DNA from: a virus | Lineage: Duplodnaviria > Caudoviricetes | Strand: one strand, 5' to 3' | IMG/VR virus record: IMGVR_UViG_3300025018_003594 | Span: 1 to 26,127 of that record | Length of the DNA: 26,127 nucleotides | Shown: positions 2,996 through 26,127 of the stretch, piece after piece | How the letters are laid out: every line of letters begins with the position of its first letter | Numbering within the stretch: the stretch's first letter is position 1 | Notes under the pieces: model-generated | Database searches by the model: none | Seen by the model: only the letters and a program-made list of their open reading frames with translations | Told to the model about the DNA's origin: nothing | Made by a program: the position numbers and the translations under genes

Positions 2996-3050
2996 ATGAA
3001 TGGCGGCTTTTAGCTGGAGGGTAAAAACGCATATCTAGTATACTTGTGGC

Positions 3051-3470: not shown

Positions 3471-3485
3471 CCATCATGCATGAAG

Positions 3486-4891: not shown

Positions 4892-4917
4892 ATTTTTGTT
4901 CTTTCTTCCTGATCAAA

Positions 4918-4983: not shown

Positions 4984-5017
4984 GAGTAATCAGATGTTTT
5001 CCAGAACAATGGGAAGC

Positions 5018-6783: not shown

Positions 6784-7186
6784 TTGATTTTCCTTTCATA
6801 ATTAGTGAGGCATGTTTTAAAGCCTCTTGAATAAGTTCTTGTTGCTCCGAAGTGAGCGTTCCATCTTTTACTTTTGTGGTTACCTCAATTTTATTGCTGT
6901 AAGCAGAGTGGCGATGATTAAGCCAATAGAAAATAGCAGAGATATTGCGATCACGAATGGCTGATAATAATTGACTCTCTGCCATGTCATTTACTAGAGA
7001 AACACCTTCTACCAGAGCTTGATCTGCCTCTTTGGCGAATTCTTTATCTTCTTCCTTCCACCTATAAAATGTAGATCGTGCAATGCCTGTTTTCTCACAG
7101 GCTATTTGCACCACAGGAGTTTTCTTCAGCTGGTCGATCATCAACTGTCTATTTTGTTGAGTTCTATCTTGAAGATCATTTGACAT
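6773..7186 (-). CDS. HTH protein, putative terminase small subunit (137 aa from ATG 7186)
   Basis: VQIACEKTGIARSTFYRWKEEDKEF HTH followed by helices and AIFYWL. Overlaps terL. AAAGGA SD precedes ATG 7186. Confidence 0.65.
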   Translation of the reverse strand: MSNDLQDRTQQNRQLMIDQLKKTPVVQIACEKTGIARSTFYRWKEEDKEFAKEADQALVEGVSLVNDMAESQLLSAIRDRNISAIFYWLNHRHSAYSNKIEVTTKVKDGTLTSEQQELIQEALKHASLIMKGKSNEK

Positions 7187-9187: not shown

Positions 9188-9213
9188 GTGGCCCCTTCTA
9201 TCTTGAGGCCAAC

Positions 9214-9269
9214 AAAAAAGCTGACACAAGATAATTAACCGTAAATTGGTTGACTATCTTGTATCAGCT
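9214..9269 (-). terminator. Long hairpin plus U-tract (intrinsic terminator/attenuator-like) in the leader of the methylase-terminase operon
   Basis: 22-nt arms 9219-9240 and 9248-9269 with 19/22 Watson-Crick pairs and a 7-nt loop. On the minus-strand RNA two mismatches become G-U pairs and a U run follows (A run 9214-9219). Confidence 0.6.
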
Positions 9270-9474
9270 GAGCTGATTTGCTTACTGGTCAAAGTAAGCG
9301 GTATCTTTAAAATTTACTTTTATACTAAACATAAGACTATCACTAGAAAATTAAGCTGTCAATAATGACGAGTATTGATATAGAAGCACATCAATACGCA
9401 CATTGATAACCCAAAGTAAGCAGTTTCGAGCTATAATGGAACATACCAAATTTGCAATTTTTGAAAAATACCAG

Positions 9475-10959
9475 ATGGAAAAAATTACTTTATCAAAATT
9501 AGAACAATATCTCTCCAAAGCAGCTTGGATTCTTAAAGGTCCAGTAGATGCAGCAGACTTCAAAGCATATATTTTCCCACTTCTTTTTTTTAAACGTATT
9601 TCTGATGTTTATGATGAAGAATATAAGATAGCATTGGATGAATCTGGCGGTGATGAAGAGTATGCTAATTTACCAGAGTTCCATAGATTTACTATTCCTG
9701 AAGGATGTCATTGGAAAGATGTTCGTGAGACTACTTCTAATGTCGGTCAAAAACTTCAATATGCCTTTCGTGAAATTGAGAAAGCCAACCAAAAACATTT
9801 GTTTGGTATTTTTGGGGATACTCAATGGAGTAATAAAGAAAAGTTGAGTGATGAATTACTTCTTAATTTATTAGAACATTTTTCTCAATATAATTTAGCA
9901 AATTCAAATGTTAATCCAGACATGCTTGGGCAATCTTATGAGTATCTCATCAAACATTTTGCTGATATCACTAATAAAAAGGCTGGTGAATTTTATACTC
10001 CACGTACAGTTGTAAAACTAATGGCTCAAATCCTTGATCCAAAAGAAGGCGATCGAATTTATGATCCAGCTTGTGGTACTGGAGGAATGTTACTTGAAGC
10101 TGTATCTCATGTTGAAAAAGAAAATAAAGATGCTCGTACTTTAAAACTTTATGGTCAAGAGAAAAATCTAACAACATCCGCCATTGCAAGAATGAACATG
10201 TTTTTACATGGCATTGAAGATTTCTCAATTGTTCGCGGTGATACTTTAAAAAATCCTGCTTTCTTTGACGGTGATAAGTTAGCAGTATTTAATTGTGTAG
10301 TTGCCAATCCACCTTTCTCTTTAAAAAAATGGGGTTCAAAAAGTTGGGAATCAGATCCATATGGTAGAAACCAATATGGATTGCCTTCAGACTCGAATGG
10401 AGATTTTGCCTGGGTTCAACACATGATTGCTTCAATGGATCCAATTACTGGCAGAATGGCAGTAGTTCTTCCTCATGGAGTACTTTTTAGAAAAGGTCAG
10501 GAAGGAAAAATTAGAGAAGCAATTCTTAAAGATGATTTACTGGAAGCCGTTATTGGCTTAGGAGATAATATTTTTTATGGAACTTCACTTGCCGCCTGTA
10601 TTTTAGTTTTTAGAAAACAAAAACCACTTAACCGAAAAAGCAAAGTTTTATTTATTGATGCCAATGACCAAGTGCGTGTAGGACGAGCTCAAAATTATTT
10701 AGAAAAAGAACATATAGAAACAATTTTTAACTGGTATTTAAATTTTGAAGAGGTTGAAAACTACGTCCACATTGCAGACCAAAAAGAAATATCAGAAAAT
10801 GACTTTAATTTAAATATTCCGCTATATGTCGAGAAAGAAATTGAAGATAATTTACCTTCTTTAGAAGAAGCGAAACTTGTTGTAAAAAATTCAGCAAATG
10901 AAGTTTGGGAAGCTGAAGAAGAATTTAAACAGCAGTTAAAGAAATTTGATTTAATATGA
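9475..10959 (+). CDS. hsdM: Type I R-M methyltransferase subunit M1 (NPPF), 494 aa from ATG 9475
   Basis: LLFFKRISD, AGEFYTP, YDPACGTGG, YGQE, ANPPF, VLPHGVLFR and FNLNIPLYV. Confidence 0.95.
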   Translation: MEKITLSKLEQYLSKAAWILKGPVDAADFKAYIFPLLFFKRISDVYDEEYKIALDESGGDEEYANLPEFHRFTIPEGCHWKDVRETTSNVGQKLQYAFREIEKANQKHLFGIFGDTQWSNKEKLSDELLLNLLEHFSQYNLANSNVNPDMLGQSYEYLIKHFADITNKKAGEFYTPRTVVKLMAQILDPKEGDRIYDPACGTGGMLLEAVSHVEKENKDARTLKLYGQEKNLTTSAIARMNMFLHGIEDFSIVRGDTLKNPAFFDGDKLAVFNCVVANPPFSLKKWGSKSWESDPYGRNQYGLPSDSNGDFAWVQHMIASMDPITGRMAVVLPHGVLFRKGQEGKIREAILKDDLLEAVIGLGDNIFYGTSLAACILVFRKQKPLNRKSKVLFIDANDQVRVGRAQNYLEKEHIETIFNWYLNFEEVENYVHIADQKEISENDFNLNIPLYVEKEIEDNLPSLEEAKLVVKNSANEVWEAEEEFKQQLKKFDLI

Positions 10960-12422
10960 TGACACAAAACCAACTAGAAAATTATCTTTGGGGAGCAGCT
11001 ACTTTGCTTCGTGGCGTTATTGATGCTGGAGATTACAAACAATATATTTTCCCTCTCATTTTTTATAAAAGAATTTGTGATGTTTATGATGAGGAATATC
11101 AAGAAGCTCTTGAAGATTCAGGTAATGATTTAGAGTTTGCTACATTTGCCGAAAATCATCGCTTCGTTGTACCAAAAGAATTTCACTGGAGTAAGGTACG
11201 AGAAGTAACTTCAAGTGTAGGCATGGCTTTACAAAAAGCTATGCAAGAAATTGAAAAAGCTAATCCAGATGTCCTCTATGGAATTTTTGGTGATGCTCAA
11301 TGGACTAATAAGCAACGTCTATCAGATGAAATTTTGCTTGATCTTATTGAACATTTTTCTAGCGAAAAACTTACTATTGAGAATGTCCCTGATGATAAGT
11401 TGGGTGATGCTTATGAATATCTAATTAAAAAATTTGCTGATGATAGTGGTCACACTGCAGCAGAGTTCTATACCAATCGCACAGTAGTGCAACTAATGAC
11501 TCAACTCATGAATCCTCAACCAGGAGAAAGTGTCTATGATCCTACATGTGGTTCTGGAGGATTACTTCTAAATTGCGCACTAGAATTAAAAAGACAAGGC
11601 AAAGAATATCGCACTCTTAAATTATTTGGTCAGGAAATAAATTTAATGACTTCTTCTATTGCTAGAATGAACATGTTTTTGCATGGAATTGAGGACTTCT
11701 CCATTAAACGAGGAGATACTCTTAAGGAGCCACTTTTTGTCGAAAATGATAGATTAAAAAAATTTAATGTAATTTTAGCTAATCCACCTTACTCTATTAA
11801 ACGATGGGATCGTAAGATGTTTGAGAGTGATCCTTATGGAAGAAATACATTAGGAACACCTCCACAGGGTTGTGCTGATTATGCTTTCCAGCAACATATT
11901 ATTCAAAGTTTAGATAGAGAAAATGGAAGATCAGTGGTTCTTTGGCCTCATGGAGTTTTATTCCGAGATCAAGAAAAAGACATGCGAAAGAAGCTTATTG
12001 AAATGGATTTAGTTGAAGCTGTCATAGGTCTTGGTCCAAATCTTTTTTACAACTCACCAATGGAATCATGTTTATTAATTTGCAGAACAAACAAAAAACC
12101 TAATCAAAGAAATAAAATTTTATTTATTAATGCAGTAAATGATGTTAAAGCTGAAACTGGAACAAGCTATCTTAAAGATGAACATATTGAGAAGGTCAGC
12201 AATGCGTTTCATAACTATGAAGATGTTGATGGATTTGCAAAAGTTGTAAAAAATGAAGATATTGAATTGCAAAAACACAACTTAAACATCTCTCTTTATG
12301 TCTCTGGTAGAACAAATAATAATAAAGAAAGCTTTGATACTGATCTATTGCCATTAATTCAGGATTGGAGCAAATCATCAATTAAGCTTAAAAACAGTAT
12401 TAAAGAATTAATTCATGAATAA
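10956..12422 (+). CDS. hsdM: Type I R-M methyltransferase subunit M2 (NPPY), 488 aa
   Basis: LENYLWGAA..LRG, AAEFYTN, YDPTCGSGG, ANPPY and WPHGVLFR. ATGA overlap with the M1 stop. Confidence 0.95.
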   Translation: MMTQNQLENYLWGAATLLRGVIDAGDYKQYIFPLIFYKRICDVYDEEYQEALEDSGNDLEFATFAENHRFVVPKEFHWSKVREVTSSVGMALQKAMQEIEKANPDVLYGIFGDAQWTNKQRLSDEILLDLIEHFSSEKLTIENVPDDKLGDAYEYLIKKFADDSGHTAAEFYTNRTVVQLMTQLMNPQPGESVYDPTCGSGGLLLNCALELKRQGKEYRTLKLFGQEINLMTSSIARMNMFLHGIEDFSIKRGDTLKEPLFVENDRLKKFNVILANPPYSIKRWDRKMFESDPYGRNTLGTPPQGCADYAFQQHIIQSLDRENGRSVVLWPHGVLFRDQEKDMRKKLIEMDLVEAVIGLGPNLFYNSPMESCLLICRTNKKPNQRNKILFINAVNDVKAETGTSYLKDEHIEKVSNAFHNYEDVDGFAKVVKNEDIELQKHNLNISLYVSGRTNNNKESFDTDLLPLIQDWSKSSIKLKNSIKELIHE

Positions 12423-13566
12423 ACAACTTTTTAACAAAAACCACTGGAAAAAGTTCAATTTTGGCGACATTGTTCAAGAAGTAAGAATCGCTGAGCACAA
12501 TCCAATTGAAAATGGTATTAAAAGATACATTGGACTTGAGCATATTGATTCAGAAGATTTACATATAAAATCTTGGGGAAATATAAAAGATGGGACAACT
12601 TTTTCTAGAAAATTTATAAAGGGACAATTGCTTTTTGGAAGAAGAAGAGCTTATCTCAAAAAAGCTGCGATTGCAGACTTTGATGGGATTTGTTCAGGAG
12701 ACATTTTAGTCTTTGAAGCAATCAAAGGTAAATTAATACCAGAATTGTTACCATTTATAGTTCAGAATGACAGGTTCTTTAATTTTGCTGTAGATGCATC
12801 TGCTGGATCGTTATCACCAAGAGTAAAGTTTAAAGATTTGGCAAAATTTAAACTTACTTTACCCACTTCTTTAGATGAACAAAAAGAGTTAGCCGATTTA
12901 TTGTGGGCCGGGGATAAATTGGTGAAAAAATATAATAATCTACTGAATAGATCTCAAAATCACATTGATGTTGCAATTTCCAATAAAATGATGAACCTTC
13001 CAGAAAATTTTCAAAAGGTTTCTGAATTATTATTAGAAAATCCAATGTATGGTGCTAGTAATAAAGCTGCACCTTACATTAATAATCAGTCAAGATATGT
13101 CAGAATCACTGATATTGATGACAATGGAAAATTAAAAAACGATACGAAAGTTTCAATGGATAACTACGATAGTAAATATGAGTTAAAACAAAATGACATA
13201 TTACTTGTAAGAACAGCTGAACCAGGAAAATCGTTCATATATAAATCTTCAATGGGAAAATGTGTATATGCTGGTTACTTAATTAAATTTGTTTTTGATT
13301 CTAAAAAAATATTTCCTGACTACTTTTATATATTTACCAAAACAAATTTATATCGGAGACAAATATTAAGACGACAAAAAAAGGGTACTCTCTCAAACAT
13401 TAACTCATCTCAATTTCAATCAATTAGATTAAACGTTCCTAACAAAGCTGAGCAAGAGGAAGTTATTAACCTATATTCTCAACTAACAAATAATATTAAT
13501 GACATTAATAAAATGATAGGTATAACTAGATCTCTTATCAAAAACATTACAAATGGGATATTTTAA
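12415..13566 (+). CDS. hsdS: Type I R-M specificity subunit, 383 aa
   Basis: Two target-recognition domains, each followed by a conserved P...EQ helix (LPTSLDEQ; VPNKAEQ). Lies directly after the hsdM genes. Confidence 0.92.
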   Translation: MNKQLFNKNHWKKFNFGDIVQEVRIAEHNPIENGIKRYIGLEHIDSEDLHIKSWGNIKDGTTFSRKFIKGQLLFGRRRAYLKKAAIADFDGICSGDILVFEAIKGKLIPELLPFIVQNDRFFNFAVDASAGSLSPRVKFKDLAKFKLTLPTSLDEQKELADLLWAGDKLVKKYNNLLNRSQNHIDVAISNKMMNLPENFQKVSELLLENPMYGASNKAAPYINNQSRYVRITDIDDNGKLKNDTKVSMDNYDSKYELKQNDILLVRTAEPGKSFIYKSSMGKCVYAGYLIKFVFDSKKIFPDYFYIFTKTNLYRRQILRRQKKGTLSNINSSQFQSIRLNVPNKAEQEEVINLYSQLTNNINDINKMIGITRSLIKNITNGIF

Positions 13567-14774
13567 TGGATAATAACGATAATCAATTTCAAAAAATATT
13601 TTTACCTTCTGATGAATCTAGAATAATAGATGCAACAAAAGATAACACTTTGACAAAAGGAAATTTTTCTGGAGGAAAATACTTTAGTATTCAATTCAGT
13701 GATGAAATAGGAGAATGGCAGATTTCACCAAAGATTAAATTAACTTTTTCTTTCATACCAGATAAGAATGATATTTCATACGTAAAAATTCAAAAACTTA
13801 AGAAGGTGTCAAATGAGTGGATTGAGCAAGAGTGCTTGAAACTTTCTAGCTTCGGCTTTAAACACATAGGAACACTTCTTAATTTTATAAGTAATGATCT
13901 AGACCTTAAAAGCGTTACTAATAAAAAATTAACAATTGCTGAAAATACAATAGATATTGATACTGAAACAATAAAAAAAATCAAAACTGTTTTGTCTGAT
14001 AACAAATCGCTTCAGTTTTTTAAAAAAACAATTCAAGACTTGATGAATAATAGCGAATTAGTTACTTCAGAAGATGTTGTGGCTGTTGGATATCGTAAAA
14101 ATGAGTTAAAAACATTTAAAAACTTACTCAACGAAACTGGCTTTATTGATAAGTATAAAAGTGATAACAAAATAATAAAACCAGGTTACGAATCAGTATG
14201 GCAATTCTTTTTTGAGAAAAATCCTTGGATATGGGGATATGGTTTAAGTTATGTTTGGAGTGGCCCATTTGATGAAAATCCTGTAGAAAAAATTGTCACC
14301 GGTCACACCTTTTTTCAAAGTGGGAAACGAGCTGATGGAGTCTTATCTACTATTAGCACTATTAAAAGCTTTGTTATAGTTGAAATCAAACTTCCAGATC
14401 ACGAATTACTAGAACAGGCTTCTAAAGCATATAGAAAAGAATGCTGGAAAATTTCTGGAGAGGTATCTGGTGGGATTTCACAATGTCAAAAAACTAAACA
14501 TAAATTTATTTCTCAAGTTAAAGATAAGCTCAATTTGACAAATAATGATGGTAATCCAACCGGCGAAACCATATATGCTATTAAACCAAAATCGTTTTTA
14601 ATTGTTGGAAATTTAGATCAATTCAAAACTGAGCACGGAGTAAATGAAGAAAAATATTCAAGTTTTGAATTGTTTAGAAATTCAAATATAGATCCAGAAA
14701 TAATTACATACGACGAACTTTATCAAAGAGCAAACCATATAGTGAACAATCAAATAAGTAAAAGTGTAGAATAA
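13566..14774 (+). CDS. sduA: Shedu anti-phage nuclease (DUF4263 C-terminal domain), 402 aa
   Basis: ESVWQFFFEKNPWIWG, RAD, IVEIKLP, GISQ, LIVG, FR....PEIITYDELYQRA are DUF4263 signatures. Variable N-terminal region of about 170 aa. Confidence 0.85.
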   Translation: MDNNDNQFQKIFLPSDESRIIDATKDNTLTKGNFSGGKYFSIQFSDEIGEWQISPKIKLTFSFIPDKNDISYVKIQKLKKVSNEWIEQECLKLSSFGFKHIGTLLNFISNDLDLKSVTNKKLTIAENTIDIDTETIKKIKTVLSDNKSLQFFKKTIQDLMNNSELVTSEDVVAVGYRKNELKTFKNLLNETGFIDKYKSDNKIIKPGYESVWQFFFEKNPWIWGYGLSYVWSGPFDENPVEKIVTGHTFFQSGKRADGVLSTISTIKSFVIVEIKLPDHELLEQASKAYRKECWKISGEVSGGISQCQKTKHKFISQVKDKLNLTNNDGNPTGETIYAIKPKSFLIVGNLDQFKTEHGVNEEKYSSFELFRNSNIDPEIITYDELYQRANHIVNNQISKSVE

Positions 14775-14778
14775 TAAT

Positions 14779-17745
14779 ATGTCATTTAACGAACTAAATA
14801 CAATCGAACCATATATCATAAAAAAGCTTTCTGGCTACACCCTTCCGCCAGAAGGAACTCTAGCTCTTGGTGAAGAACAAGCTATTTATGGCGACTATCC
14901 ATGGAAATATATTCATCCTAAATTACTCAAACGAAGTGAAACTGATATATTACTTGAGTCTGAAGTCGTTGAAGCTCTTAAAAAACTTAATCCAGAAATT
15001 GAAGCTCAACCAAGCAGAGCTGAAGAAGTACTTTATAGACTTAGGTCAGTTTTACTATCTGTTGATTCCATTGGCTTAGTAAAGGCAAACGAAGAATTTG
15101 CTAAATGGTTAGTTGGTGACAAGACCATGCCTTTTGGTGAAAACAATCAACATATTCCGATAAGACTAATTGATTTTGATAATTGGAAAAATAACTCTTA
15201 TATTGTCACCAACCAATACACAGTTCTAGGGAAGACAGAAAAAAGACCTGATCTCACATTTTTAGTAAATGGCATTCCTCTAGTTATTGGTGAATTAAAA
15301 ACACCAGTTAGACCAGCTATATCCTGGTTAGATGGTGCAGTAGATATCCATGATGACTATGAGAACACTATTCCCCAATTATTTGTTCCTAATCTATTTT
15401 CTTTTGCTACCGAAGGCAAAATGTACCGATATGGATCTGTGCGAATGCCACTTGAACTTTGGGGTCCATGGAAAACGCAAGAAAGTAAAAAGAAACATTT
15501 ACAACTAAAAGAAATTGATGTTGCCATTGAGGACCAGCTTCATCCAAAAACTTTGCTTGATTTACTAAAAAACTTTACTTTGTATGCAACAGATAATAAG
15601 AACAGAAGAATTAAAATTGTTGCTCGTTATCAACAATATGAAGGTGCTAATAAAATTGTTGAACGAGTTAAAGAAGGAAAACTCAAGCAAGGATTGATTT
15701 GGCATTTCCAAGGTTCTGGAAAATCATACCTAATTGTTTTTGCTGCTCAAAAACTGAGATTATCTCCAGAACTCAAAAGTCCTACTGTTTTAGTTATTGT
15801 TGATAGAACCGATCTTGATAGTCAGATGTCAAACAATTTTTCTGTTACAGAAATACCCAATGTTGTTCCTGCAGAAAGCATCCAAGATCTAAACAGATTA
15901 CTTGCCAATGACACTCGTAAAATTATTATTACCATGATGCATAAATTTAGAGATGTTACTGAGACTCTAAATGAAAGAGAAAACATAATTGCTTTAGTTG
16001 ATGAGGCTCATCGTACCCAAGAGGGTGATTTGGGAAGAAAAATGAGAACGGCTATTCCAAATGCTTTTCTTTTTGGTTTAACAGGAACTCCAATTAATAA
16101 AACAGACAGAAATACCTTTTATGCTTTTGGTTCTCCAGAAGATACTGAAGGATATATGTCGCTCTACTCATTTCATGAATCTGTGAGAGATGGGGCTACA
16201 CTTAAGTTGCATTTCGAACCACGATTGCTCAATATCCATGTAGATAAAGCTAGCGTGGATACTGCCTTTGCAGAAATAACACAGCATCTTACGAATGAGG
16301 ATAAACAACAATTAGTCAATCAGGCTGCTAAAATGTCTGCTTTCCTAAAATCTCCGAGCAGAATTGAAAAAATTGTTGCTGACATTGTTGAACACTTTAC
16401 ACAAAGAGTCGAACCACAAGGTTTTAAGGCAATGATAGTTGCTCCAGATCGTGAAGCGTGTGATATCTATAAACAAGAACTTGACAAAATATTCCCAGAA
16501 GAATCATCTGCTGTTGTAGTTTCAAGCTCTGCTAGTGATGCTTTGGAATTTAGAAGAAAATATGAACGAAGCAAAGATCAAGAAGAAAAAGTGTTAGACC
16601 ACTTTAAAGAACCATCACATCCACTTAAGATCGTGATTGTTACTTCTAAACTTCTTACTGGTTTTGATGCACCAATCTTACAATGCATGTACCTAGATAA
16701 ATCAATGAAAGATCATAATTTACTTCAAGCTATTTGTAGAACTAATCGCGTATACAAGGATAAATCTCATGGACTAATCGTTGATTACTTTGGTGTTTTT
16801 GATGATGTAGCAAAATCTCTTGAGTTCGATGATAAGAGTGTGCAAAGAGTAATTACTAATCTTTCTGAATTAAAAATGGAATTGCCAGATGCTATTGAAA
16901 AATGTATTTCTCATTTTCCAGATGTTGACCGTAGTGTAGAAGGTTTTGAAGGTTTGCAATTAGCTCAAGATTGTTTGCATTCAGATGAGAAAAAAGATGC
17001 ATTTGCAGCTGATTACAAATATTTGGCAAAACTTTGGGAAGCAATATCTCCCGACTTAGTTCTCAATCGCTATGAAAAAGATTATCGATGGATTTCTCAA
17101 GTTTACGAATCAATAAAACCTCCATCTGGTGATACAGGTAGATTGCTTTGGCATGCTCTAGGAGCACAAACAACTAAAATGATGCATGAGCATATTCATA
17201 TCGATACCATCAATGACGATTTGGAAAAAGTAATTTTAGACGCAGATCTTATTGAAAGCTTAACGCAAGCTTCAGATGATACAAAGATTAAAGAGATGGA
17301 AGGTGAAATTGCTAAACGACTAAAAAAACATTCTAATGATCCTCGTTTTGTTGCTCTAAGTGAAAAGCTTGAACAACTTAAAGATAGAGCTCTGCAAGGA
17401 TTAATTAGTAGCGTAGATTTTCTCAAAGGATTAGTTGATATTGCTCGAGATGTTGTTGCAACTGAAAAGGAAGTACAAACTGAAGAAGAGCGCAATAATG
17501 CTAAAACCGCTCTAACAGATTTATTTCTAGAAATAAAAACGGATGCTACTCCCGCCATAGTAGAACGAATTGTTAGTGATATAGATGAGATTGTCAAAAT
17601 TGTTAGATTTTCAGGCTGGCAATCTACCAATGCTGGTGAACGTGAAGTGCAAAGAGCACTGAGAAAAACTTTATTGAAATATAAGTTACATAAAGAAACT
17701 GAATTGTTTAATAAATGCTATAAATATATCAAGGAATATTATTAA
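14779..17745 (+). CDS. hsdR: Type I R-M restriction/translocase subunit, 988 aa
   Basis: RPD..FLVNGIPLVIGELK nuclease, HFQGSGKS, DEAHR, TGTP, LLTGFDAP and QAICRTNR helicase motifs. Confidence 0.97.
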   Translation: MSFNELNTIEPYIIKKLSGYTLPPEGTLALGEEQAIYGDYPWKYIHPKLLKRSETDILLESEVVEALKKLNPEIEAQPSRAEEVLYRLRSVLLSVDSIGLVKANEEFAKWLVGDKTMPFGENNQHIPIRLIDFDNWKNNSYIVTNQYTVLGKTEKRPDLTFLVNGIPLVIGELKTPVRPAISWLDGAVDIHDDYENTIPQLFVPNLFSFATEGKMYRYGSVRMPLELWGPWKTQESKKKHLQLKEIDVAIEDQLHPKTLLDLLKNFTLYATDNKNRRIKIVARYQQYEGANKIVERVKEGKLKQGLIWHFQGSGKSYLIVFAAQKLRLSPELKSPTVLVIVDRTDLDSQMSNNFSVTEIPNVVPAESIQDLNRLLANDTRKIIITMMHKFRDVTETLNERENIIALVDEAHRTQEGDLGRKMRTAIPNAFLFGLTGTPINKTDRNTFYAFGSPEDTEGYMSLYSFHESVRDGATLKLHFEPRLLNIHVDKASVDTAFAEITQHLTNEDKQQLVNQAAKMSAFLKSPSRIEKIVADIVEHFTQRVEPQGFKAMIVAPDREACDIYKQELDKIFPEESSAVVVSSSASDALEFRRKYERSKDQEEKVLDHFKEPSHPLKIVIVTSKLLTGFDAPILQCMYLDKSMKDHNLLQAICRTNRVYKDKSHGLIVDYFGVFDDVAKSLEFDDKSVQRVITNLSELKMELPDAIEKCISHFPDVDRSVEGFEGLQLAQDCLHSDEKKDAFAADYKYLAKLWEAISPDLVLNRYEKDYRWISQVYESIKPPSGDTGRLLWHALGAQTTKMMHEHIHIDTINDDLEKVILDADLIESLTQASDDTKIKEMEGEIAKRLKKHSNDPRFVALSEKLEQLKDRALQGLISSVDFLKGLVDIARDVVATEKEVQTEEERNNAKTALTDLFLEIKTDATPAIVERIVSDIDEIVKIVRFSGWQSTNAGEREVQRALRKTLLKYKLHKETELFNKCYKYIKEYY

Positions 17746-17753: not shown

Positions 17754-18365
17754 ATGTATAGTATTGTAATACTTATTAAAGAAATCATTATAAAAATACT
17801 TGTATTTTTGATTAAAGGTTATTATTTTCTTTTCAAAAAAGACTACTACAATAAACATCACCTCGAGATTGTCTGGGATAATGGCAATTTAAGAGCTAGT
17901 TGGTTTAACCATAATGACTATGTTGTTCTAAAAGAATCAGAGCTTAATGAAACTTTATTAGAATCAGACCCAGAAGAATTTATTAATTTAGTTCTGAGCG
18001 AAGCAAAAAATTGTAATTTTATTATTTTTGATTGTGGTGATGATGAAAGATTTGTGCAATTCTGGCTCGGGGATGGTGAAATTATGGCGAGTTGGCCGAT
18101 TATCAAAAAAACAAATAAGTTAGGTAAATATATTTATCCAATGCTTGGAGTATTAAATGAATTAGATATTACCCAAAGACCAACAAAAGTTGGTGGTTTG
18201 ATTAGAACTAAGTATCAATATTACGAAGTAAAACAGGAGCGAGATTTTAAAGATTACCAAATTCATTTTGCTGATAATATTGATGAAGCTACTAGATTTA
18301 CAACTGTTATCTTTACCAAAGTCTTTAAGCAAGATCTTGATAAGTTAAGATTTAAATTAGGTTAA
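17754..18365 (+). CDS. Hypothetical protein with hydrophobic N-terminus, 203 aa
   Basis: Starts 8 nt after the hsdR stop on the same strand. No family recognised with confidence. Confidence 0.65.
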   Translation: MYSIVILIKEIIIKILVFLIKGYYFLFKKDYYNKHHLEIVWDNGNLRASWFNHNDYVVLKESELNETLLESDPEEFINLVLSEAKNCNFIIFDCGDDERFVQFWLGDGEIMASWPIIKKTNKLGKYIYPMLGVLNELDITQRPTKVGGLIRTKYQYYEVKQERDFKDYQIHFADNIDEATRFTTVIFTKVFKQDLDKLRFKLG

Positions 18366-19778
18366 TATTTTTTTAAGCTCTCTCCAAATCTCCACCATCG
18401 CCCAAGTATCCAACTTACAATAAGTCAATAAATTGCTAGCAATAGCATCTCTTTCAGCCTGAACAATATCTCCATACACCATCTCATGCCATTTGATCAT
18501 AGCTGTTGCACCCTCGCCAATTTCCAAAGTTTTGTAGCTAAGTTCTGGAGCTAAAATTGGCAACACTTTTTTAATTGATGCACTTCCATGAAATTTATTA
18601 TCAACATAAAGACCTTTTGAAAATACTTCCATCAAATCAAAAGTTCTTTTGTTGATACTGGCTAATTGCTCTGCATATTCTGGAACAAGCGCTCCTAATT
18701 CTTCATTTCTGCCACACTCAAAGCCTTTATTCCACACAATGATTGTGCCAGTCTCTCCAATTACATCACACAGTGCTTTGGCTAATTCTGGAGCTGGGTC
18801 ATCTTTTTCTCTGGCTAAGAATTCATAATGTTTAAACTCGCTACTCTCAGGAGATTCAGCTACATGAATAGAAAATTGAGTTGTAATTTGCTGGTATGGT
18901 CCATAGTTGTCATACATTGGCAAAGCTTCAGCGTAGGTTTCGTAATCTAAAAAATATAATGGAAACTCTAATCCATCCAACTGTTTTTTAATTGCTTCAT
19001 GTTTGATTATTGGCTTACCACTTCTAATAGATTGAATCTGTAACTTTTGTTTAGTAGATGTTTTAAAAGTATCAGGAATGTCCTTGATTAAACCAACTCC
19101 CATATCAATTAGTTCAGCATATTGTTTTTTACTACCTCTATTCAAATCATAAATTGGATAAGCTGGTAATTCTGGGAAACAAATAGTTGGATACGAGCAA
19201 GTTCCTGGATTAAAACAATGTTCATCACTAGGTATAGTTTCTAGTCTCAGAGTTGACCAAGCATCAGAGCGAAGTTGATATACTTCATCTTCTTTTTTAG
19301 CAATCTCATCCTCCATGTCTTCAATCACAAATAGTTGTTGCAGATCAATTTCTCCATCACGTCTATAATCACTATTTACTATTACTAAATATGTTTTATT
19401 AATCGATAGTGTCGCCTTACCTACCAAGTATTGAAAAGTCACGTCATACTTATGTTCAGTATGAATAGTGGTACTACTTTTTATTTCATATAAATCATAG
19501 GTGTTATTTGTTTTGTCATGAACTAAGGCATCGATACGTGATTGATAGTTGCCATCAGTCAATGTTTCTTCAAATGAAATAGTGGTTCCAGCTGGGTATT
19601 CGCGAGCAACTTTTTTTTCTAAAAATACTTTAGCCAATTTCTCAATTTCATAACCTTGCTTCATGATATGTTGGTCGTAGACAGAAACAGGCTTAGGAGT
19701 GACCTCAGAACGAGATTTTAGCCACATGTGGAGTGGTGAATCTAAATATTCAATAAAAAGTGATTTTGTTAATTTCAT
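18357..19778 (-). CDS. DUF2779-family protein: RecB/Cas4-like nuclease domain plus RNase H-like (DEDD) domain, 473 aa
   Basis: RIDAL...LYEIKSST...DVTFQ, Cys cluster CFNPGTC....C, PLYFLDYET, WNKGFE, SIKKVLP and YCKLDT. Confidence 0.85.
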   Translation of the reverse strand: MKLTKSLFIEYLDSPLHMWLKSRSEVTPKPVSVYDQHIMKQGYEIEKLAKVFLEKKVAREYPAGTTISFEETLTDGNYQSRIDALVHDKTNNTYDLYEIKSSTTIHTEHKYDVTFQYLVGKATLSINKTYLVIVNSDYRRDGEIDLQQLFVIEDMEDEIAKKEDEVYQLRSDAWSTLRLETIPSDEHCFNPGTCSYPTICFPELPAYPIYDLNRGSKKQYAELIDMGVGLIKDIPDTFKTSTKQKLQIQSIRSGKPIIKHEAIKKQLDGLEFPLYFLDYETYAEALPMYDNYGPYQQITTQFSIHVAESPESSEFKHYEFLAREKDDPAPELAKALCDVIGETGTIIVWNKGFECGRNEELGALVPEYAEQLASINKRTFDLMEVFSKGLYVDNKFHGSASIKKVLPILAPELSYKTLEIGEGATAMIKWHEMVYGDIVQAERDAIASNLLTYCKLDTWAMVEIWRELKKILT

Positions 19779-19854
19779 TACAACTCATTATATCGTTAAA
19801 ATAGACCAAAATGGTGTTAAACTAGAGTCAAATAATAAACATAATTTTTGATAT

Positions 19855-20325
19855 ATGAAACAAAAAACAAAACTAGAATCTGTAGCTGTTGGAGTCACAG
19901 GTGAATATTATGTTGCTGGTGAATTAAGTCATCGAGGCTATATTTCTTCAATCACCCTTCGCAATACTAGAGGAATTGACATTATTGTCAGTAACAAAGA
20001 AGGAACAAAATCAGCCACTATCCAAGTAAAAAGCACTCAAAATAATATGAAAAACAGTTGGATTCTAACCCAGAAGTCTGAAGATTTCTTTTCTGAAAAT
20101 CATTTTTATATTTTTGTAAATTTAGATGAGCCTGGGATAAGACCAAAGTTTTTTGTTGTTCCAAGTGAAGTAGTTGCTCAATACATATCAACCAGTCACA
20201 AAAACTGGCTCAACAAACCTGGTAGAAATGGTCAGCAACACAATGATAATCAAATGAGACGATTTGACGATTTAGAAGGACAATATTTAGAGGCTTGGAG
20301 TCTTATTGAAAATCATTTGAAATAA
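19855..20325 (+). CDS. Small PD-(D/E)XK (Hjc-like) endonuclease-family protein, 156 aa
   Basis: GVTGEYYVAGEL..RGY...GIDII...IQVKS: E..D..QxK nuclease pattern. Confidence 0.75.
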   Translation: MKQKTKLESVAVGVTGEYYVAGELSHRGYISSITLRNTRGIDIIVSNKEGTKSATIQVKSTQNNMKNSWILTQKSEDFFSENHFYIFVNLDEPGIRPKFFVVPSEVVAQYISTSHKNWLNKPGRNGQQHNDNQMRRFDDLEGQYLEAWSLIENHLK

Positions 20326-20380: not shown

Positions 20381-20405
20381 TTATGCTAACTATTAGTTAG
20401 CATAA
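20381..20405. promoter_or_regulatory. Perfect 25-bp palindrome (putative operator) just before the zinc-ribbon gene
   Basis: TTATGCTAACTA-T-TAGTTAGCATAA, between TATAAT (20369-20374) and ATG 20407. Confidence 0.7.
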
Positions 20406-20406: not shown

Positions 20407-22032
20407 ATGTCATTTCAATATCTGAAATCACAACAAGATTACGAAGATCGCTATGATTTAGGCACGATCAGAGAATGTCTTAGACAACTCGAGATGATTG
20501 ATGGGATTGGCGAGAAGCTCAGAGTTGAACCAAAGTTTGAGAAATATCCTGAATCCGAACATGAGAAAAACATGGGAATTTTTAGAGGCAGATTTATTTT
20601 TGTAATAAAAGCATCGAGGTACAAAAACCGTGCTTCAACCATTGAGGAATGGATGGAAGCGGATCGAACCAAGCAAGATAAGCAAGACAATACTCCAATT
20701 CCAAAGGCTGATTGTCCAGTTTGTGGTACTGTCTTGGTCAATGATGGTTTACATCACTTGGTTGATTGGGATGATGATAAACCCATGAGAGTTTTATTTA
20801 CCCTCAAATGCCTAAAGTGTAAAAAGCGTCACGGTGTTTATGATGATGGAGAGTTTTATGTTTCAAAATCAGATTTTTGCCCTGATTGTAAAGAAGAACT
20901 AGAAGTGAAAAGCAATAGAAAAGGTGAGGTAATTACAACTCGCTACAAGTGTAAGAGCTGTGGGTATTCAAACAAAGATACTTATGACCTTAAGAAGAGC
21001 GACGAAGAACATAAAAAATGGGAAGAAGATCAAGCAAAGAAGGATCTTGAAGATAAGCAGTTACTTGAAAAATATCGAGATCAGTTTTGTCTGTCTGATA
21101 AAGAAGGCAAAGAATATGTTGAAAGTCTTGAAGCTTTGGAAGTAGCTCAGGAAGTAAAAGCTGAAGTTCTAGCAGAAATGGACACTCCTGCTCATGAGAA
21201 ACTGCTCTCAGTAAACAAAATCTCAATTACCGATCTTGAAAAATTAGTTAATAAAGCACTGGAAAAAAGTGGTTTTACTCGTCTATCGTTTGGTAATCCA
21301 GATATGGATAGATATGTATTAGTTCCTTTTACTGTTCAAGAAGCCAAGCCTAAGCGACGAGATCGTGAAAGTGTCTCGAATCTATATGACTTATTAAAAC
21401 AAGCACTCAAAGACACCAACTGGCGAGTACCCAAAGATACGATCAGTTATCGTTTGGGCTTCCTCACAGGCAAACTCAAAGGATATGAGCTAGAAGATGA
21501 CTTACTCAAACTCTTTGGCAAAGAAGAACCAAAGAAACCTAAATCAAAGCTTGATCCTGAGTTCCGAGCAAAGTATGAGCATCATCACTTAGTACAAATG
21601 GCTCGAATGGGTGCTGAATATGAAGCAACCAAACAAATTAGAACTCGCAGATTAAAGAATGAGCCTGATGGATTTTACCTGAATGATGGTGGTCGAGGTT
21701 ATACTTGCGGAATCTGCAGAAGATCACATGACGGTGAAGATATTTGGTGGCGACCAGATGGATTGAGATGTCGTGATTGTTGGAGAAATATTCAGGAGGG
21801 AGTTATTCCCGTGCTCAATCTTGATAAAGAGTGGTGGGAGGAAGACCACTTCACAAAATTTGAAGTTGATTATTACTATGGTGTCAAAACTCAATCAATT
21901 AAAAAGCTAAGGCGCGAGGGTATTTTGGTTGGAAGAGATCTAAAAGATGAAAATGGGTATGTCTACGAAACTGTTTTTTTGGTGAGCGAAAATCAGAAAT
22001 TCCTTAAAGATCATCCACGAAAAGAGAGGTAG
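20407..22032 (+). CDS. Hypothetical multi-zinc-ribbon protein with possible C-terminal winged HTH, 541 aa
   Basis: Six CxxC motifs (CPVC, CLKC, CPDC, CKSC, CGIC, CRDC). The tail FEVDYYYGVKTQSIKKLRREGIL resembles a MerR/Xis-type HTH. Confidence 0.75.
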   Translation: MSFQYLKSQQDYEDRYDLGTIRECLRQLEMIDGIGEKLRVEPKFEKYPESEHEKNMGIFRGRFIFVIKASRYKNRASTIEEWMEADRTKQDKQDNTPIPKADCPVCGTVLVNDGLHHLVDWDDDKPMRVLFTLKCLKCKKRHGVYDDGEFYVSKSDFCPDCKEELEVKSNRKGEVITTRYKCKSCGYSNKDTYDLKKSDEEHKKWEEDQAKKDLEDKQLLEKYRDQFCLSDKEGKEYVESLEALEVAQEVKAEVLAEMDTPAHEKLLSVNKISITDLEKLVNKALEKSGFTRLSFGNPDMDRYVLVPFTVQEAKPKRRDRESVSNLYDLLKQALKDTNWRVPKDTISYRLGFLTGKLKGYELEDDLLKLFGKEEPKKPKSKLDPEFRAKYEHHHLVQMARMGAEYEATKQIRTRRLKNEPDGFYLNDGGRGYTCGICRRSHDGEDIWWRPDGLRCRDCWRNIQEGVIPVLNLDKEWWEEDHFTKFEVDYYYGVKTQSIKKLRREGILVGRDLKDENGYVYETVFLVSENQKFLKDHPRKER

Positions 22033-22056: not shown

Positions 22057-22092
22057 TTTACTTTTTACGCTTAATGCGTAAAATAGTGCGTA
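22057..22092 (+). promoter_or_regulatory. Putative lexA promoter with overlapping palindromic operator
   Basis: TTTACT-N16-TAAAAT (22057-22084). Inverted repeat TTTTACGC-TTAAT-GCGTAAAA (22063-22083) and an extra TGCGTA half-site (22087-22092) touching the ATG. Confidence 0.6.
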
Positions 22093-22712
22093 TGAATAAA
22101 AAACTGACTTCTAAACAGAAGCAAGTTCTATCAACAATCATTGATTTAATCCAGAAACTTGGGCATGAGCCTACTCTAGAGCAAGTGAGATCTGCACTAG
22201 ATTACACTAGCACTAGCTCAGTCCAAAGACACACAGATTCTCTCAAGGAATTAGGTTACCTTAGTAAATCTCGTGGATTATCTCTTCCAGATACAGACCA
22301 AACCGTACAAATTCCTTTAGTGGGAAATGTTGCATGTGGTGCTCCACTCTTAGCAATTGAAAATATTGAGGCATACATTCCCTATGACTCAACAGGTCTG
22401 AGGGGAAATAGTGATGACTATTTTTTCCTTAGAGCAGTTGGTGACAGTATGGATGCTACTAATGTTAATGGCAAAACCATTGATGATGGTGATTATGTTC
22501 TAGTTAAGAAACAGGATTACCCCGATTTCGGAAAAAGAATAGTCGCTTTAATTGGTGAGAATGCCACTATTAAAAGGCTAAAACGTGGAGATGGTCATAT
22601 TATTCTTGAGCCAGAATCTAACAATCCAGCAAATAAACCTATTTACGTGTTTGAAGAAATCTCAGTTCAAGGTGTAGCTGAGGATGTAATTAAGAAAGGC
22701 TTTAATGATTGA
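22092..22712 (+). CDS. lexA: LexA-family repressor (wHTH + S24 autopeptidase), 206 aa from ATG 22092
   Basis: LTSKQ..VL...G..PT..Q......S.SSVQRH...L...GYL, IPLVGNVACGAP cleavage loop, GDSM catalytic Ser and ATIKR catalytic Lys. Confidence 0.9.
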   Translation: MNKKLTSKQKQVLSTIIDLIQKLGHEPTLEQVRSALDYTSTSSVQRHTDSLKELGYLSKSRGLSLPDTDQTVQIPLVGNVACGAPLLAIENIEAYIPYDSTGLRGNSDDYFFLRAVGDSMDATNVNGKTIDDGDYVLVKKQDYPDFGKRIVALIGENATIKRLKRGDGHIILEPESNNPANKPIYVFEEISVQGVAEDVIKKGFND

Positions 22713-23193
22713 ACTAATAGGAAATATTTCCGATATTGCTAGCTTAGTAATAATATTGGCAACAGTTCTAGCTTGGTTTAAGGGTATACTGCCTGCTGTT
22801 ATTAGATTAGGCCTTGGTTTAGCTAAAAGAAAAATTGTGGTTTTTGCAAAATCTGATAACGCCATAAGCTTAATAAGCTTGTTAACAGACTCTAAGCTTA
22901 TTTCAAAAAATAATATCTCTCAAATAACTAAGAAAGATGATTTTGGAAAAGCCAGTGAAGCCACCCTCTTTTTGGTTTATTGGCCAGACTGGAAAAAAGA
23001 CTTAATTAATATTAAAAATCTCAAGCGTGATAGCGACGCTCTTGTAATTTATGCTCCCAAATCAGAAGGTTATATTCCTGATGATTTGATGGCAGAACTT
23101 GACTCAGCGAGAAATGTTACCGTCGTGAATTTCCGTGGACGATTACTTAACGATATAGTGACCGCCATGATAACAACTGGATACACAAAATGA
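22705..23193 (+). CDS. N-terminal TM helix plus small alpha/beta (Rossmann/receiver-like) domain; putative CBASS effector, 162 aa
   Basis: Hydrophobic IASLVIILATVLAWF, then alternating strands (KIVVFA, LFLVYW, ALVIYA, VTVVN) and helices. Lies immediately upstream of the CD-NTase. The effector role is inferred from position. Confidence 0.6.
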   Translation: MIELIGNISDIASLVIILATVLAWFKGILPAVIRLGLGLAKRKIVVFAKSDNAISLISLLTDSKLISKNNISQITKKDDFGKASEATLFLVYWPDWKKDLINIKNLKRDSDALVIYAPKSEGYIPDDLMAELDSARNVTVVNFRGRLLNDIVTAMITTGYTK

Positions 23194-23208
23194 TAAAAGT
23201 AAGAAGTT

Positions 23209-24528
23209 ATGATAAAACCTGAAATAAATGAACTGCTTAGACAATATGTTAGAGACAACTTATCCCCAGATGAAAAAGATAGAACTTTTGTTTCAAATAT
23301 ATACGATTCTTTTACTGAGCTCCTAAATAACAACTGCATACAAATAGGTTCTTATCCAAGATTTACTTCAATAAGACCTCTCCATGATTTGGACATCCTT
23401 TATATATTGGGTCAGTGGAATCAATACGCACACAATCCTCAATCCGCACTTTCAAAACTATTTGAATCAGTAAAAGCTGATTATAAAAATCCAACAAATT
23501 ACACGGTAAAAGTTTCGCTACAAACTCATTCCGTTACAGTTGCATACATGGATGGCGATAAAGAAATATTTTCAGTTGATATAGTTCCAGCATACATTTT
23601 TTCTAAAAACGAATTTCAACTAGACACTTATAAAGTGCCGGAGTTGTTGAGAAAAAGACATGGCAACAAGAGAAATGAGTTTTATCAGCAGCTTGCTATT
23701 CAAGGTCGAGAAATGGGATGGATTGATTCTGATCCAAGGGGCTATATAAAAGTTGCGTCAGATATTAATAAATCTAACAATGATTTTAGAAAGTCAGTTA
23801 AATTTGTCAAAGCATGGGCCAATTCTTACAAGGAAGAATATGATGACTTTAAGATGAAATCCTTTCATATTGAACAACTCATCACAATTCAATATAAATT
23901 GAATTCTAACCTTGAAATATTTGATGCAATTTTTAATTTCTTTTTACAGTTACCAGATTCTTTTTCTAGACCACAAATTACTGACAGAGCTGACAGCACA
24001 AGATATATCGACGATTATATTAAAGACTTAACTCAAGCACAGAGAGACCTAATATTAGAAGCAAGAAACCAGTTTTTATCTCAACTAGAGAGTATCTATT
24101 TTGATGTCGAAATTGAAGATTTGCTGCAACCAGTACTTTATACAAGATTACCATCAGAAGATTTCCTTTTTGACAGACAAATACCAACTCTTACAGAGAC
24201 AACTATGACTATTGAGGGATGGATACAAAAAAACGGAAATGACTTTCGTAGACTTACTCAACAAGGTTTTATTGATAACGGGCTGAAGATAAAATTTAGG
24301 CTTCATATGGGGGTTGATTGCGATGAATATTGGTGGAAAGTTAAAAATGACAATAACTGTGAACAGCCAAGAGGAGATATAACAGTTGGCAATACAAAGA
24401 ATGTTCCTGAAGACACGAAGTATCCTGGGAATCATTATGTTGAGTGCTATGCAATTCGTGATGGAATTTGTGTTGCTAAAGCTAGACAAAATGTTGTTAT
24501 AAAGCATCAAAGTAAAAAGTATTATTAA
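23209..24528 (+). CDS. CD-NTase (cGAS/DncV-like, SMODS) nucleotidyltransferase with C-terminal AGS-C domain, 439 aa
   Basis: IGSYPRFTSIRPLHDLDIL (GS...DxD), SVDIVPA third Asp, W..SDP, VKAW and KSFHIE. The C-terminus WKVKN...RG.I...EDTKYPGNHYVECYAI..G.CVA is the AGS-C signature. Confidence 0.88.
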   Translation: MIKPEINELLRQYVRDNLSPDEKDRTFVSNIYDSFTELLNNNCIQIGSYPRFTSIRPLHDLDILYILGQWNQYAHNPQSALSKLFESVKADYKNPTNYTVKVSLQTHSVTVAYMDGDKEIFSVDIVPAYIFSKNEFQLDTYKVPELLRKRHGNKRNEFYQQLAIQGREMGWIDSDPRGYIKVASDINKSNNDFRKSVKFVKAWANSYKEEYDDFKMKSFHIEQLITIQYKLNSNLEIFDAIFNFFLQLPDSFSRPQITDRADSTRYIDDYIKDLTQAQRDLILEARNQFLSQLESIYFDVEIEDLLQPVLYTRLPSEDFLFDRQIPTLTETTMTIEGWIQKNGNDFRRLTQQGFIDNGLKIKFRLHMGVDCDEYWWKVKNDNNCEQPRGDITVGNTKNVPEDTKYPGNHYVECYAIRDGICVAKARQNVVIKHQSKKYY

Positions 24529-24540
24529 TATTGAATCATT

Positions 24541-25863
24541 ATGAAAAAAATCAAAGTATCCATCCGCGACGAACAGACATTAGAGTTACAAGAAGACGGT
24601 CAAAAAGGCGATTTAATTGATCTTTCCTCACTCCATGACCTAGATATAGATAAATCCACTATTAAAAGTGTTGTAAATTCTATTAAAAAAGATCATTTTG
24701 ACGAGGAAGTTGAGAAAGTACGTAAAACTGTTGAGCAACAAAAAGAATTAGAAGCTCAACTCAAAGAACAAAAACTCCTAGAAAAAATTGCAGTCTTGGA
24801 GAAAGAAAAAGAATCAGCTGTTAAGTTGGCTGAAGCCAATGCTAAGAACTTATCACAAGAAGATATAGCCAAAAAAGAAGCTGAAATTACCAGACTTCAA
24901 TCTCAAATAGAAGCTGCCCAAACAGAAAAGAAATTGGCTGTCACAGAAGCTCTCAAGGTGGTTGAAAAAGAACGCGATGAGCTAGTTCACAAGCTTGATA
25001 AAAAGGATTCGGAGTCAAAACTTCTTACTACCTCTATCAAAGAAAAATATGAAAATGAACTCAAGAGTAAAGAGGAAATGATTGAGTATTACAAGGATTT
25101 GAAGGTCAAAGCCTCGACCAAAATGCTTGGTGAAACTCTTGAACAGCACTGTGAAATTGAATTCAATAAGCTTAGAGCCACTGCTTTTCAAAATGCCTAC
25201 TTTGAAAAAGATAATGAGGGTAACGCAAAGGGCAGTACAAAAGGAGATTACATCTATCGTGAGACTAATGATCAAGGTGTAGAAATCATTAGCATCATGT
25301 TTGAAATGAAGAACGAAGGCGACGATACAGAGAATAAAAAGAAAAATGAAGATTTCTTTAAAAAGCTCGATAAAGATAGAAATGACAAGGGTTGTGAGTA
25401 TGCAGTACTCGTTTCATTACTAGAAGCTGATAACGAGCTCTATAACACTGGAATTGTAGATGTCTCACATAAATATCCCAAAATGTATGTCATTAGGCCT
25501 CAATTCTTCATTCCAATGATCACTTTGCTTAGAAATGCCGCTTTAAATTCGCTTAAATATAAAACAGAATTGGCTATAGTTAAGAGTCAAAACATTGATA
25601 TTACCAAGTTTGAAGATGAAGTAACTGGCTGGAAAGATAGCTGGTTGAGATCAATGAAATATGCGGGTCAGCAACATGTTGAAGCAGTTGAGCAAATCAA
25701 CAAAGCGATAAAAGATCTTGAAAAAGTAAGAGATGCTTTAACACTTTCAGATAAACACTTGCTCACAGCAGAAAATAAGATGGACGATCTCACTATCAAA
25801 CGGCTCACCAGAGGTAATCCAACTATGAAGGAGAAGTTTGAGGAGTTGAAAAAAGATAAGTAG
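24541..25863 (+). CDS. DUF2130-family coiled-coil protein with C-terminal nuclease-like domain, 440 aa
   Basis: Long EK-rich coiled coil, then STKMLGETLEQHC, FEKDN, KGDYIYRE, IMFEMKNE, CEYAVLVSLLE and KMYVIRPQFFIP. Confidence 0.85.
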   Translation: MKKIKVSIRDEQTLELQEDGQKGDLIDLSSLHDLDIDKSTIKSVVNSIKKDHFDEEVEKVRKTVEQQKELEAQLKEQKLLEKIAVLEKEKESAVKLAEANAKNLSQEDIAKKEAEITRLQSQIEAAQTEKKLAVTEALKVVEKERDELVHKLDKKDSESKLLTTSIKEKYENELKSKEEMIEYYKDLKVKASTKMLGETLEQHCEIEFNKLRATAFQNAYFEKDNEGNAKGSTKGDYIYRETNDQGVEIISIMFEMKNEGDDTENKKKNEDFFKKLDKDRNDKGCEYAVLVSLLEADNELYNTGIVDVSHKYPKMYVIRPQFFIPMITLLRNAALNSLKYKTELAIVKSQNIDITKFEDEVTGWKDSWLRSMKYAGQQHVEAVEQINKAIKDLEKVRDALTLSDKHLLTAENKMDDLTIKRLTRGNPTMKEKFEELKKDK

Positions 25864-25978: not shown

Positions 25979-26127
25979 CACAGGTTCCAGACCCAGGTGC
26001 TCCGCAACAATCGACAAATACTACCAACGATAATGCCTTGGTGAGTGTGATGGATTAGGCGAGCGATATGTGTCAGTCAACAAATTAAAATGCTGGGGAA
26101 TCATTTATTTTTTCTTTATTTTGAGTC

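Follow-up and report, generated by a model that had tools for sequence, protein, structure and literature searches.

What is a LexA-type repressor doing at the head of a phage-defence operon, and does it govern the genes behind it? The question is raised by the window, the whole 26,127-nt stretch of DNA analysed here, which is a virus-labelled record (IMGVR_UViG_3300025018_003594). Towards its right end a lexA-like gene leads into a cyclic-oligonucleotide-based anti-phage signalling system (CBASS) and a DUF2130 gene. The answer that sequence comparison makes fairly probable is that this accessory LexA serves as an autoregulated, RecA-cleavable switch: derepression after DNA damage would arm a swappable CBASS cassette, and a separate phage cue would then fire the cyclase. 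Pfam and NCBIfam scans took in 23 window proteins and PHROGs scans 15.

The operon consists of lexA (22092-22712), a gene for a protein with one transmembrane (TM) helix, here the 1TM gene (22705-23193), a cyclase gene (23209-24528) and the DUF2130 gene (24541-25863), all on the plus strand. The first two overlap by 8 nt, and gaps of 15 nt and 12 nt precede the cyclase and DUF2130 genes; these open reading frame (ORF) coordinates bear out the compact same-strand arrangement described in the first-pass annotation. The ORF finder places a TTG start at 22050 in frame with lexA, and alignments of relatives begin at the ATG at 22092. The encoded protein joins a winged helix-turn-helix (HTH) to an S24 domain and scores 126 bits against TIGR00498, for which the cut-off is 111. 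Ser119, Lys161 and a Cys82-Gly83 cleavage site are present, which upholds the earlier description of a LexA-type repressor with an intact Ser/Lys dyad. A Cys-Gly cleavage site instead of Ala-Gly occurs in UmuD. The cleavage apparatus is kept in the LexA relatives, with Gly83 in 38/38 and Ser119 and Lys161 in 37/38 each.

The host is taken to be a bacterium of the candidate phyla radiation (CPR), likely an ultra-small one, because the closest relatives are genomes of 1.0-1.2 Mb; among them L003 carries a Patescibacteria label, and G002 and G004, although labelled Pseudomonadales, are placed in the order of L003. Each of the genomes G001-G004 also encodes the main LexA, which scores higher and branches in a clade apart (the LexA tree is a quick version), and recA was found in 5/5 host genomes tested. 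The exact palindrome of the lexA promoter, described below, occurs once in each of five host genomes, at the cassette lexA, with three one-mismatch sites elsewhere; with up to one mismatch allowed, it was not found on the contigs that carry recA or the main lexA in these five incomplete genomes. The separate clade of the main LexA and the restriction of the palindrome to the cassette rule out the window LexA as the main SOS repressor of the host, and by these comparisons it is a paralogue, distinct from that repressor. A scan of viral contigs for LexA gave six pattern matches and no relative.

A sigma70-like promoter precedes lexA on the plus strand (22057..22084), with a -35 TTTACT at 22057 and a -10 TAAAAT ending at 22084. 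The -10 ends 7 nt before the ATG, a spacing that is equal across the LexA clade, and the lexA mRNA is therefore likely leaderless. The likely operator (22063..22092) comprises a perfect palindrome, TTTTACGC-N5-GCGTAAAA, at 22063-22083 between the -35 and the -10, to which GCGTA at 22088-22092, overlapping the start, adds a third half-site. A palindrome over the promoter of lexA had been noted in the first reading of the locus, and it is indeed there. Alone it is weak evidence, because four perfect inverted repeats with 8-bp arms, at least three G/C and a spacer of up to 12 (10 overlapping matches) occur in the 26 kb, the palindrome being one of them. The evidence lies in conservation: in close relatives the arms are kept and the spacer is variable.

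Promoters were compared for 38 dereplicated LexA relatives of the 47 recovered. The half-site TAC[GAT]CT lies between the -35 and -10 (-50..-20) in 28/32 promoters whose LexA has an [SA][VLI]QRH recognition helix, and in 0/6 with other helices; outside the close clade, it is found in 19/23 QRH-helix promoters. Control windows gave 0/31 and 0/32, and 2000 shuffles gave a mean of 1.3 and a maximum of 6. Judged by these counts, the promoter half-site follows the recognition helix of the LexA. LexAs of other lineages go with other motifs. At L005, L025 and L069 the motif is AGAAC-N10-GTTCT, placed across the -35 of the promoter that faces the CBASS genes, with three of its five matches in 848 kb found there. 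TACCT repeats occur at L028, L045 and L196, whose LexAs share a PTI[HY]QH helix; the patterns tried gave no motif at L093, L212 and L214.

The cargo behind this repressor changes from locus to locus. LexAs that are 89-93% identical to that of the window head a type II CBASS (cyclase, E1-E2, JAB) in L113, Thoeris in L122 and type I CBASS in L001-L004, L123 and L124, and one that is 79% identical heads Thoeris in L114. In L113, L114, L122 and L124 the DNA ceases to resemble the window at 22699, and the cargo starts within an 8-nt overlap to a 4-nt gap of the lexA stop in 10/10 close loci. Within the nine-row LexA clade around the window (support 99), six rows carry type I CBASS as cargo, two carry Thoeris and one carries type II CBASS, and the LexAs of L003 (CBASS) and L122 (Thoeris) are sister rows in the quick tree (SH-aLRT 98). 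The point at which near-identical repressors exchange their defence cargo is thus the lexA stop codon. The type II cassette of L113 also includes a 269-aa putative CBASS effector (L113:6634-7443).

A survey from the LexA side covered 45 loci, namely seven genome regions and 38 metagenome loci, with a scan of 112 proteins, mostly from downstream genes, from which duplicates and loci without downstream DNA were left out. A CBASS cyclase is present in 12/45 loci, two of them near-identical to the window and two more being duplicates. At least seven CBASS architectures occur among the 12: 1TM/AGS_C, type II (E1-E2 + JAB), Cap15, two SAVED types, 1TM + E2 and one cut at a contig end. At least 10/45 loci carry another system (Thoeris, TIR-SLATT, Hachiman, Shedu, restriction-modification (R-M) or an AriA-like ATPase), so that the idea of a CBASS-specific LexA gives way to one that heads many unrelated defence systems.

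From the cyclase side, 80 genome loci, the best 80 of 483, were surveyed. A LexA-like gene lies near the cyclase, co-oriented or divergent, in 16/80; these repressors are 25-94% identical to that of the window and belong to several lineages. By label, the linkage is found in 10/27 CPR-titled loci, 1/27 other loci and 5/10 with doubtful labels (at least 2 kb upstream each). The Fisher p is 0.005, and it becomes 0.01 once two near-duplicate pairs are merged; kinship is otherwise uncorrected. The neighbourhood comparison proposed at the outset therefore succeeds for lexA and for the 1TM gene, which is upstream of the cyclase at 74/80 loci, and fails for DUF2130, at 0/87. An unselected sample of 400 genomes of the phylum, G003 left out, with flanks of about 5 kb, several cut by contig ends, gave 18 SMODS matches, all CBASS-cyclase-like (16 by PADLOC and two by a profile made here). 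A LexA-like gene is present in the flanks of 8/18 of these cyclases, seven at the operon head, and near 4/9 ThsB TIR (Thoeris-type) genes. Uniform chance, at 2-5 LexA-like genes per Mb, would give 2-5%, although that null overstates the enrichment, since both gene types cluster on islands. Taken together, these samples indicate a genuine LexA link, one that is a property of the slot and extends beyond CBASS.

Other small genes recur in such slots. LexA and cargo are often separated by a small DUF2188 gene (PADLOC PDC-S16; L127, L131, L138, L141, L146, L153, L093), and DUF3892 or DUF1508 genes take its place in L132, L133 and L118. Unannotated cargo in L125, L132, L133, L135 and L142 includes trypsin-like protease operons and proteins of 240+299 aa, 769 aa and 556 aa. 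Such cargo offers candidate new defence genes.

The first gene behind the window lexA encodes a 162-aa protein (22705..23193, plus strand) with an N-terminal TM helix and a receiver (REC)-like domain. It matches two PADLOC models, the CBASS effector model PDLC00664 '1TM' (E=1.7e-55) and C3a59, an accessory model of type III CRISPR (E=1e-42), and the first-pass statement that no classical effector is present fails on the former. Hydropathy reaches 2.27 at residues 11-29. A structural model (pLDDT 88) has the TM helix followed by a receiver fold, which compares with the NtrC1 receiver domain at Z 13.5 and a root-mean-square deviation of 2.3 A over 113 residues. Where a canonical receiver has its phospho-acceptor Asp, at the end of strand 3, the protein has Y92-W93, and a conserved D95 (58/61) comes three residues later. 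Two of the 74 upstream occurrences of this family are partial matches; of the other six cyclase loci, four offer no upstream sequence, L019 carries NucC instead, and in L077 there is no effector gene. By the profile matches the 1TM gene is a CBASS effector, and because it is, the 1TM and cyclase genes are best read as an ordinary two-gene type I CBASS. An effector Atlas search returned only unnamed clusters, and a plasmid search returned two cyanobacterial hypothetical proteins.

The cyclase (23209..24528, plus strand) is a CD-NTase with SMODS and C-terminal AGS_C domains (PDLC00785, E=1.7e-180), in which G47-S48, D60, D62 and D124 are invariant in 42/42 aligned homologues. Its original assignment as CD-NTase-AGS-C stands, catalytic residues included, and the PADLOC check suggested for the locus returned both effector and cyclase. 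The reported lack of cap2/cap3, HORMA and TRIP13 also agrees with the 23 window proteins scanned, none of which is any of these. What survives of the proposed minimal defence system is a two-gene CBASS behind a LexA-type repressor; the four-gene, effector-less and CBASS-specific reading of it does not.

The model of the cyclase is closest to the solved folds of CdnC and CdnD, and a sequence search of solved structures gave weak matches to these two only. CdnC and CdnD make cAAA, as titles of structure entries partly support. In L019, NucC replaces the 1TM gene beside a cyclase that is 48% identical to that of the window. NucC is activated by cA3, and the same is predicted for Cam2, a membrane effector of type III CRISPR (PMC11229360). 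Because the 1TM effector has a Cam2-like architecture and NucC stands beside the 48% identical cyclase, the product of the cyclase is probably a cyclic trinucleotide such as cA3.

In L001 and L003, cyclases that are 88-90% identical to that of the window are paired with a distant member of the effector family (E about 1e-7 by profile; E=3e-32 to C3a59 in L001), so the effector itself is exchanged. These TM-REC variants (L001:5470-5988 and L003:4502-5020) make a natural pair for testing ligand specificity. TM-REC effectors are also found with shorter cyclases (L127, L198, L058, L060-L065, L076, L080), which in L127 and L198 are followed by an E2 gene in a short type II layout. In many loci without LexA the effector-cyclase pair is inserted into or next to a type I R-M operon (L022, L024, L027, L036, L041, L044, L059, L079 and L081), Bacteroidota included. 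In a viral contig, L084 (6705-9269), a 2TM effector and a cyclase directly follow an S24 repressor whose HTH is of the Cro/C1 type, a layout like that of cI-rexAB.

If the accessory LexA is a damage-responsive switch, events could run as follows. LexA would bind the half-sites between the -35 and -10 and over the start, keeping a single leaderless transcript that runs from lexA through effector and cyclase to DUF2130 at a low level. Filaments of RecA on single-stranded DNA (ssDNA), formed upon phage replication, nuclease attack or damage, would trigger cleavage at Cys-Gly and so derepress the whole cassette. Activation of the cyclase would take a second cue from the phage, which AGS_C possibly reads, and the product would probably be a cyclic trinucleotide such as cA3. 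The nucleotide would bind the REC-like domain, and the TM helices would disrupt the membrane, resulting in abortive infection.

Several points weigh against this reading, besides the null inflated by clustering on islands. The TAC[GAT]CT motif was chosen after the sequences were viewed, and the loci are kin. The neighbours of LexA are unknown, candidate-only, truncated or on the opposite strand in 23/45 LexA-selected loci. In the retrieved DNA, 64/80 related cyclase loci have no LexA-like gene, among them 26/27 non-CPR loci with at least 2 kb upstream, and therefore the type I CBASS of the window does not need LexA. The CapH/CapP regulator of CBASS is not needed for phage protection (bioRxiv 10.1101/2022.04.27.489752), and in one survey of E. 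coli the expression of defence genes is negatively correlated with that of recA (bioRxiv 10.64898/2025.12.14.694197).

That fall in defence expression as recA rises would also suit the strongest alternative, in which the element as a whole has the LexA-like protein for its master repressor, and the autoregulated transcript of that protein gives the defence genes a steady, low expression in the dormant state, any rise upon damage being a side effect. This appears unlikely, although it retains appreciable weight. The rexAB genes of phage lambda hitch-hike in such a way on the cI transcript. The virus-labelled window has serine recombinase and terminase genes, and in L115, L133, L135, L185, L211 and L213 the LexA-like gene is divergent from a terS-terL operon, in most cases accompanied by a ParB-methylase, as would befit a master repressor. 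Upstream of the window recombinase and of its methylase-terminase operon, however, there is no paired half-site, and only single half-sites are present, at 5070 and 9395. The exact palindrome is confined to the cassette lexA in the host genomes, and where the genes diverge it is the -35 towards the cargo that the motif covers, which hitch-hiking does not require.

A second alternative, that LexA controls itself alone and that the CBASS pair has a promoter inside lexA, where it was placed as at an insertion hotspot, is improbable. The pair does occur without LexA in the 64 loci mentioned above, often inside type I R-M operons, and a weak promoter could escape a scan that performs near chance (24 sites against 20.6 expected). 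That same scan, however, gave no plus-strand promoter-like site within lexA, and the tight junctions of the 10/10 close loci leave no gap for a terminator or promoter. In the damage-responsive switch the cargo would be on the lexA transcript, which may extend to DUF2130, since this gene starts 12 nt after the cyclase.

DUF2130 (24541..25863, plus strand; Pfam) is the last gene before the probable attachment scar. It is listed among the PD-(D/E)XK families, as one of unknown function (PMC3424549). It was found by tblastn in 0/87 cyclase loci, and 0/21 viral DUF2130 loci have a cyclase or effector gene, one having a LexA-like gene four genes away. Behind cyclases that are 79-90% identical, at least three other genes take this position, with lengths of 420-424 aa, 288 aa or at least 212 aa. 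The membership in the system given to DUF2130 at first is rejected on the two zero counts, and it is probably a passenger outside CBASS, an independent cargo near the end of the element. A fixed four-gene system with DUF2130 as a second, nuclease effector of the cyclase is very improbable, since the shared strand, the 12-nt gap and the PD-(D/E)XK listing that speak for it are outweighed by these counts and by the replaceable position. An Atlas resemblance of DUF2130 to RmuC, at a score of 0.81, is a lead only.

The cassette rides on a mobile element. The window codes for a serine recombinase, the small and large terminase subunits (terS/terL), an IS200 transposase and methylases, and it has a type I R-M operon that encloses Shedu; among the window proteins scanned (23 with Pfam and NCBIfam, 15 with PHROGs), none was a capsid, portal or tail protein. 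Directly 5' of lexA, as in most close relatives, stands the gene for a 541-aa zinc-ribbon protein of the element backbone (20407..22032, plus strand). A 76-81% identical copy is upstream in L001, L002 and L004, and the gene is upstream also in L114, L123 and L124; it is absent in L003. The protein has no confident family, and relatives recur near such LexA genes or cargo in many loci (L061, L065, L115, L125, L133, L183-L185, L198). An 11-bp hairpin lies at 20381-20405.

Further left, positions 1241-9229 hold the serine recombinase, terL, terS, a methylase and a ParB-methylase, and no capsid or portal genes. This recombinase-terminase-methylase module also flanks LexA-headed slots in L115, L133, L135, L183, L185, L211 and L213, and possibly marks a satellite-like CPR element family. 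A NucS-like/PDC-S11 nuclease gene and a divergent XRE HTH gene are at 3797-4891 and 4994-5230. The type I R-M operon (9403-17745) has a tandem hsdM pair (518 + 488 aa), with Shedu (SduA) between hsdS and hsdR, and at 18357-20325 a DUF2779 gene with a weak Cas4-like match is divergent from a 156-aa PD-(D/E)XK-like gene.

The right end of the element has a probable attachment scar (25981..26005, plus strand), where near-identical copies have the sequence of a tRNA 3' end. L120 and L121 differ from the window there by 11 substitutions in 20 nt and are otherwise identical over 9 kb bar one change. They carry a canonical tRNA T-arm and 3' end; the form in the window is degenerate and is also present in three DNA runs. 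Contigs from four DNA runs span the window, two of these runs not being flagged as a possible source, and a contig with a tRNA-like end joins the window at 26001; no RNA run containing the window was listed, which is uninformative as to expression. The variants look like alternative attachment-site scars at the right end of the element.

A wider proposal, on which judgement is evenly divided, is that elements of Patescibacteria use a radiation of LexA paralogues with private operators as a third DNA-damage immunity switch, beside CapH/CapP and WYL, to gate exchanged CBASS, Thoeris, Hachiman, Shedu and R-M cassettes, and that TM-REC is a cyclic-trinucleotide receptor common to CBASS and type III CRISPR. 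If so, the gene behind such a lexA would predict new defence systems, and a RecA-dependent, self-cleaving regulator would join the short list of anti-phage controllers, in a poorly studied lineage that is hard to culture. The slot could serve as a discovery tool, given that about half of the LexA-selected loci have unannotated or candidate cargo. At 2.5 kb, the cassette is of a size that can be tested directly in the laboratory, and with the cyclase as a CBASS partner for the TM-REC (Cam2-like) effector, the ligand of the effector could be found from the cyclase product.

Among known systems, the core resembles type I CBASS with an AGS-C fusion, which occurs in about 40% of type I CBASS operons (bioRxiv 10.1101/2023.05.21.541620). 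Such systems, including DancE-Cap15 (bioRxiv 10.64898/2026.10.06.757031), likewise have a cyclase and one membrane effector with no ancillary genes. The window differs from DancE-Cap15 in that its effector has a TM helix and REC fold rather than Cap15 and in that a LexA paralogue stands at its head. A literature search found no experimental study of an effector or cyclase branch of the window type. Cam2 (PMC11229360) is alike in having an N-terminal TM helix and a REC-like domain with no kinase gene alongside, and in having NucC as a neighbouring or alternative effector; the window effector also matches the type III accessory model C3a59. The window effector differs in its pairing with a CD-NTase rather than Cas10, and no Cas10 or Csm/Cmr core genes are among the 23 window proteins. 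The likeness is one of architecture.

The window repressor shares with the LexA SOS repressor (TIGR00498) the winged HTH and S24 domains, the cleavage site, the Ser/Lys dyad and an operator-like motif over its own promoter. It differs in that it is carried on a mobile element with a motif of its own, in hosts that keep a separate main LexA. A LexA-family repressor at the head of CBASS or of a defence slot was not found in a literature search whose coverage excluded most subscription journals, and the available portions of PMC8565304, PMC12345140 and PMC12259885 do not describe a LexA-headed defence slot. CapH/CapP (bioRxiv 10.1101/2022.04.27.489752) is alike in that a repressor is proteolysed upon ssDNA or DNA damage and in that it is found with CBASS and other immune systems. 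It is made of two proteins, however, of which a metallopeptidase senses ssDNA directly, whereas in the window a single protein, LexA, would cleave itself by its Ser-Lys dyad with the help of host RecA. The BrxR/CapW repressors (PMC9122601; PMC9122588) similarly form one regulator family that heads diverse defence systems; for 48% of BrxR homologues, a defence system lies no more than 50 kb away (PMC9122601). They have a WYL ligand-sensing domain and no autoproteolysis, whereas the cargo of the window abuts the lexA stop codon. Neither the regulator nor its neighbours among the scanned window proteins match a CapH/CapP-type metallopeptidase or a WYL domain. By this comparison, the window LexA most likely works in the manner of CapH/CapP or BrxR/CapW while being a member of neither.

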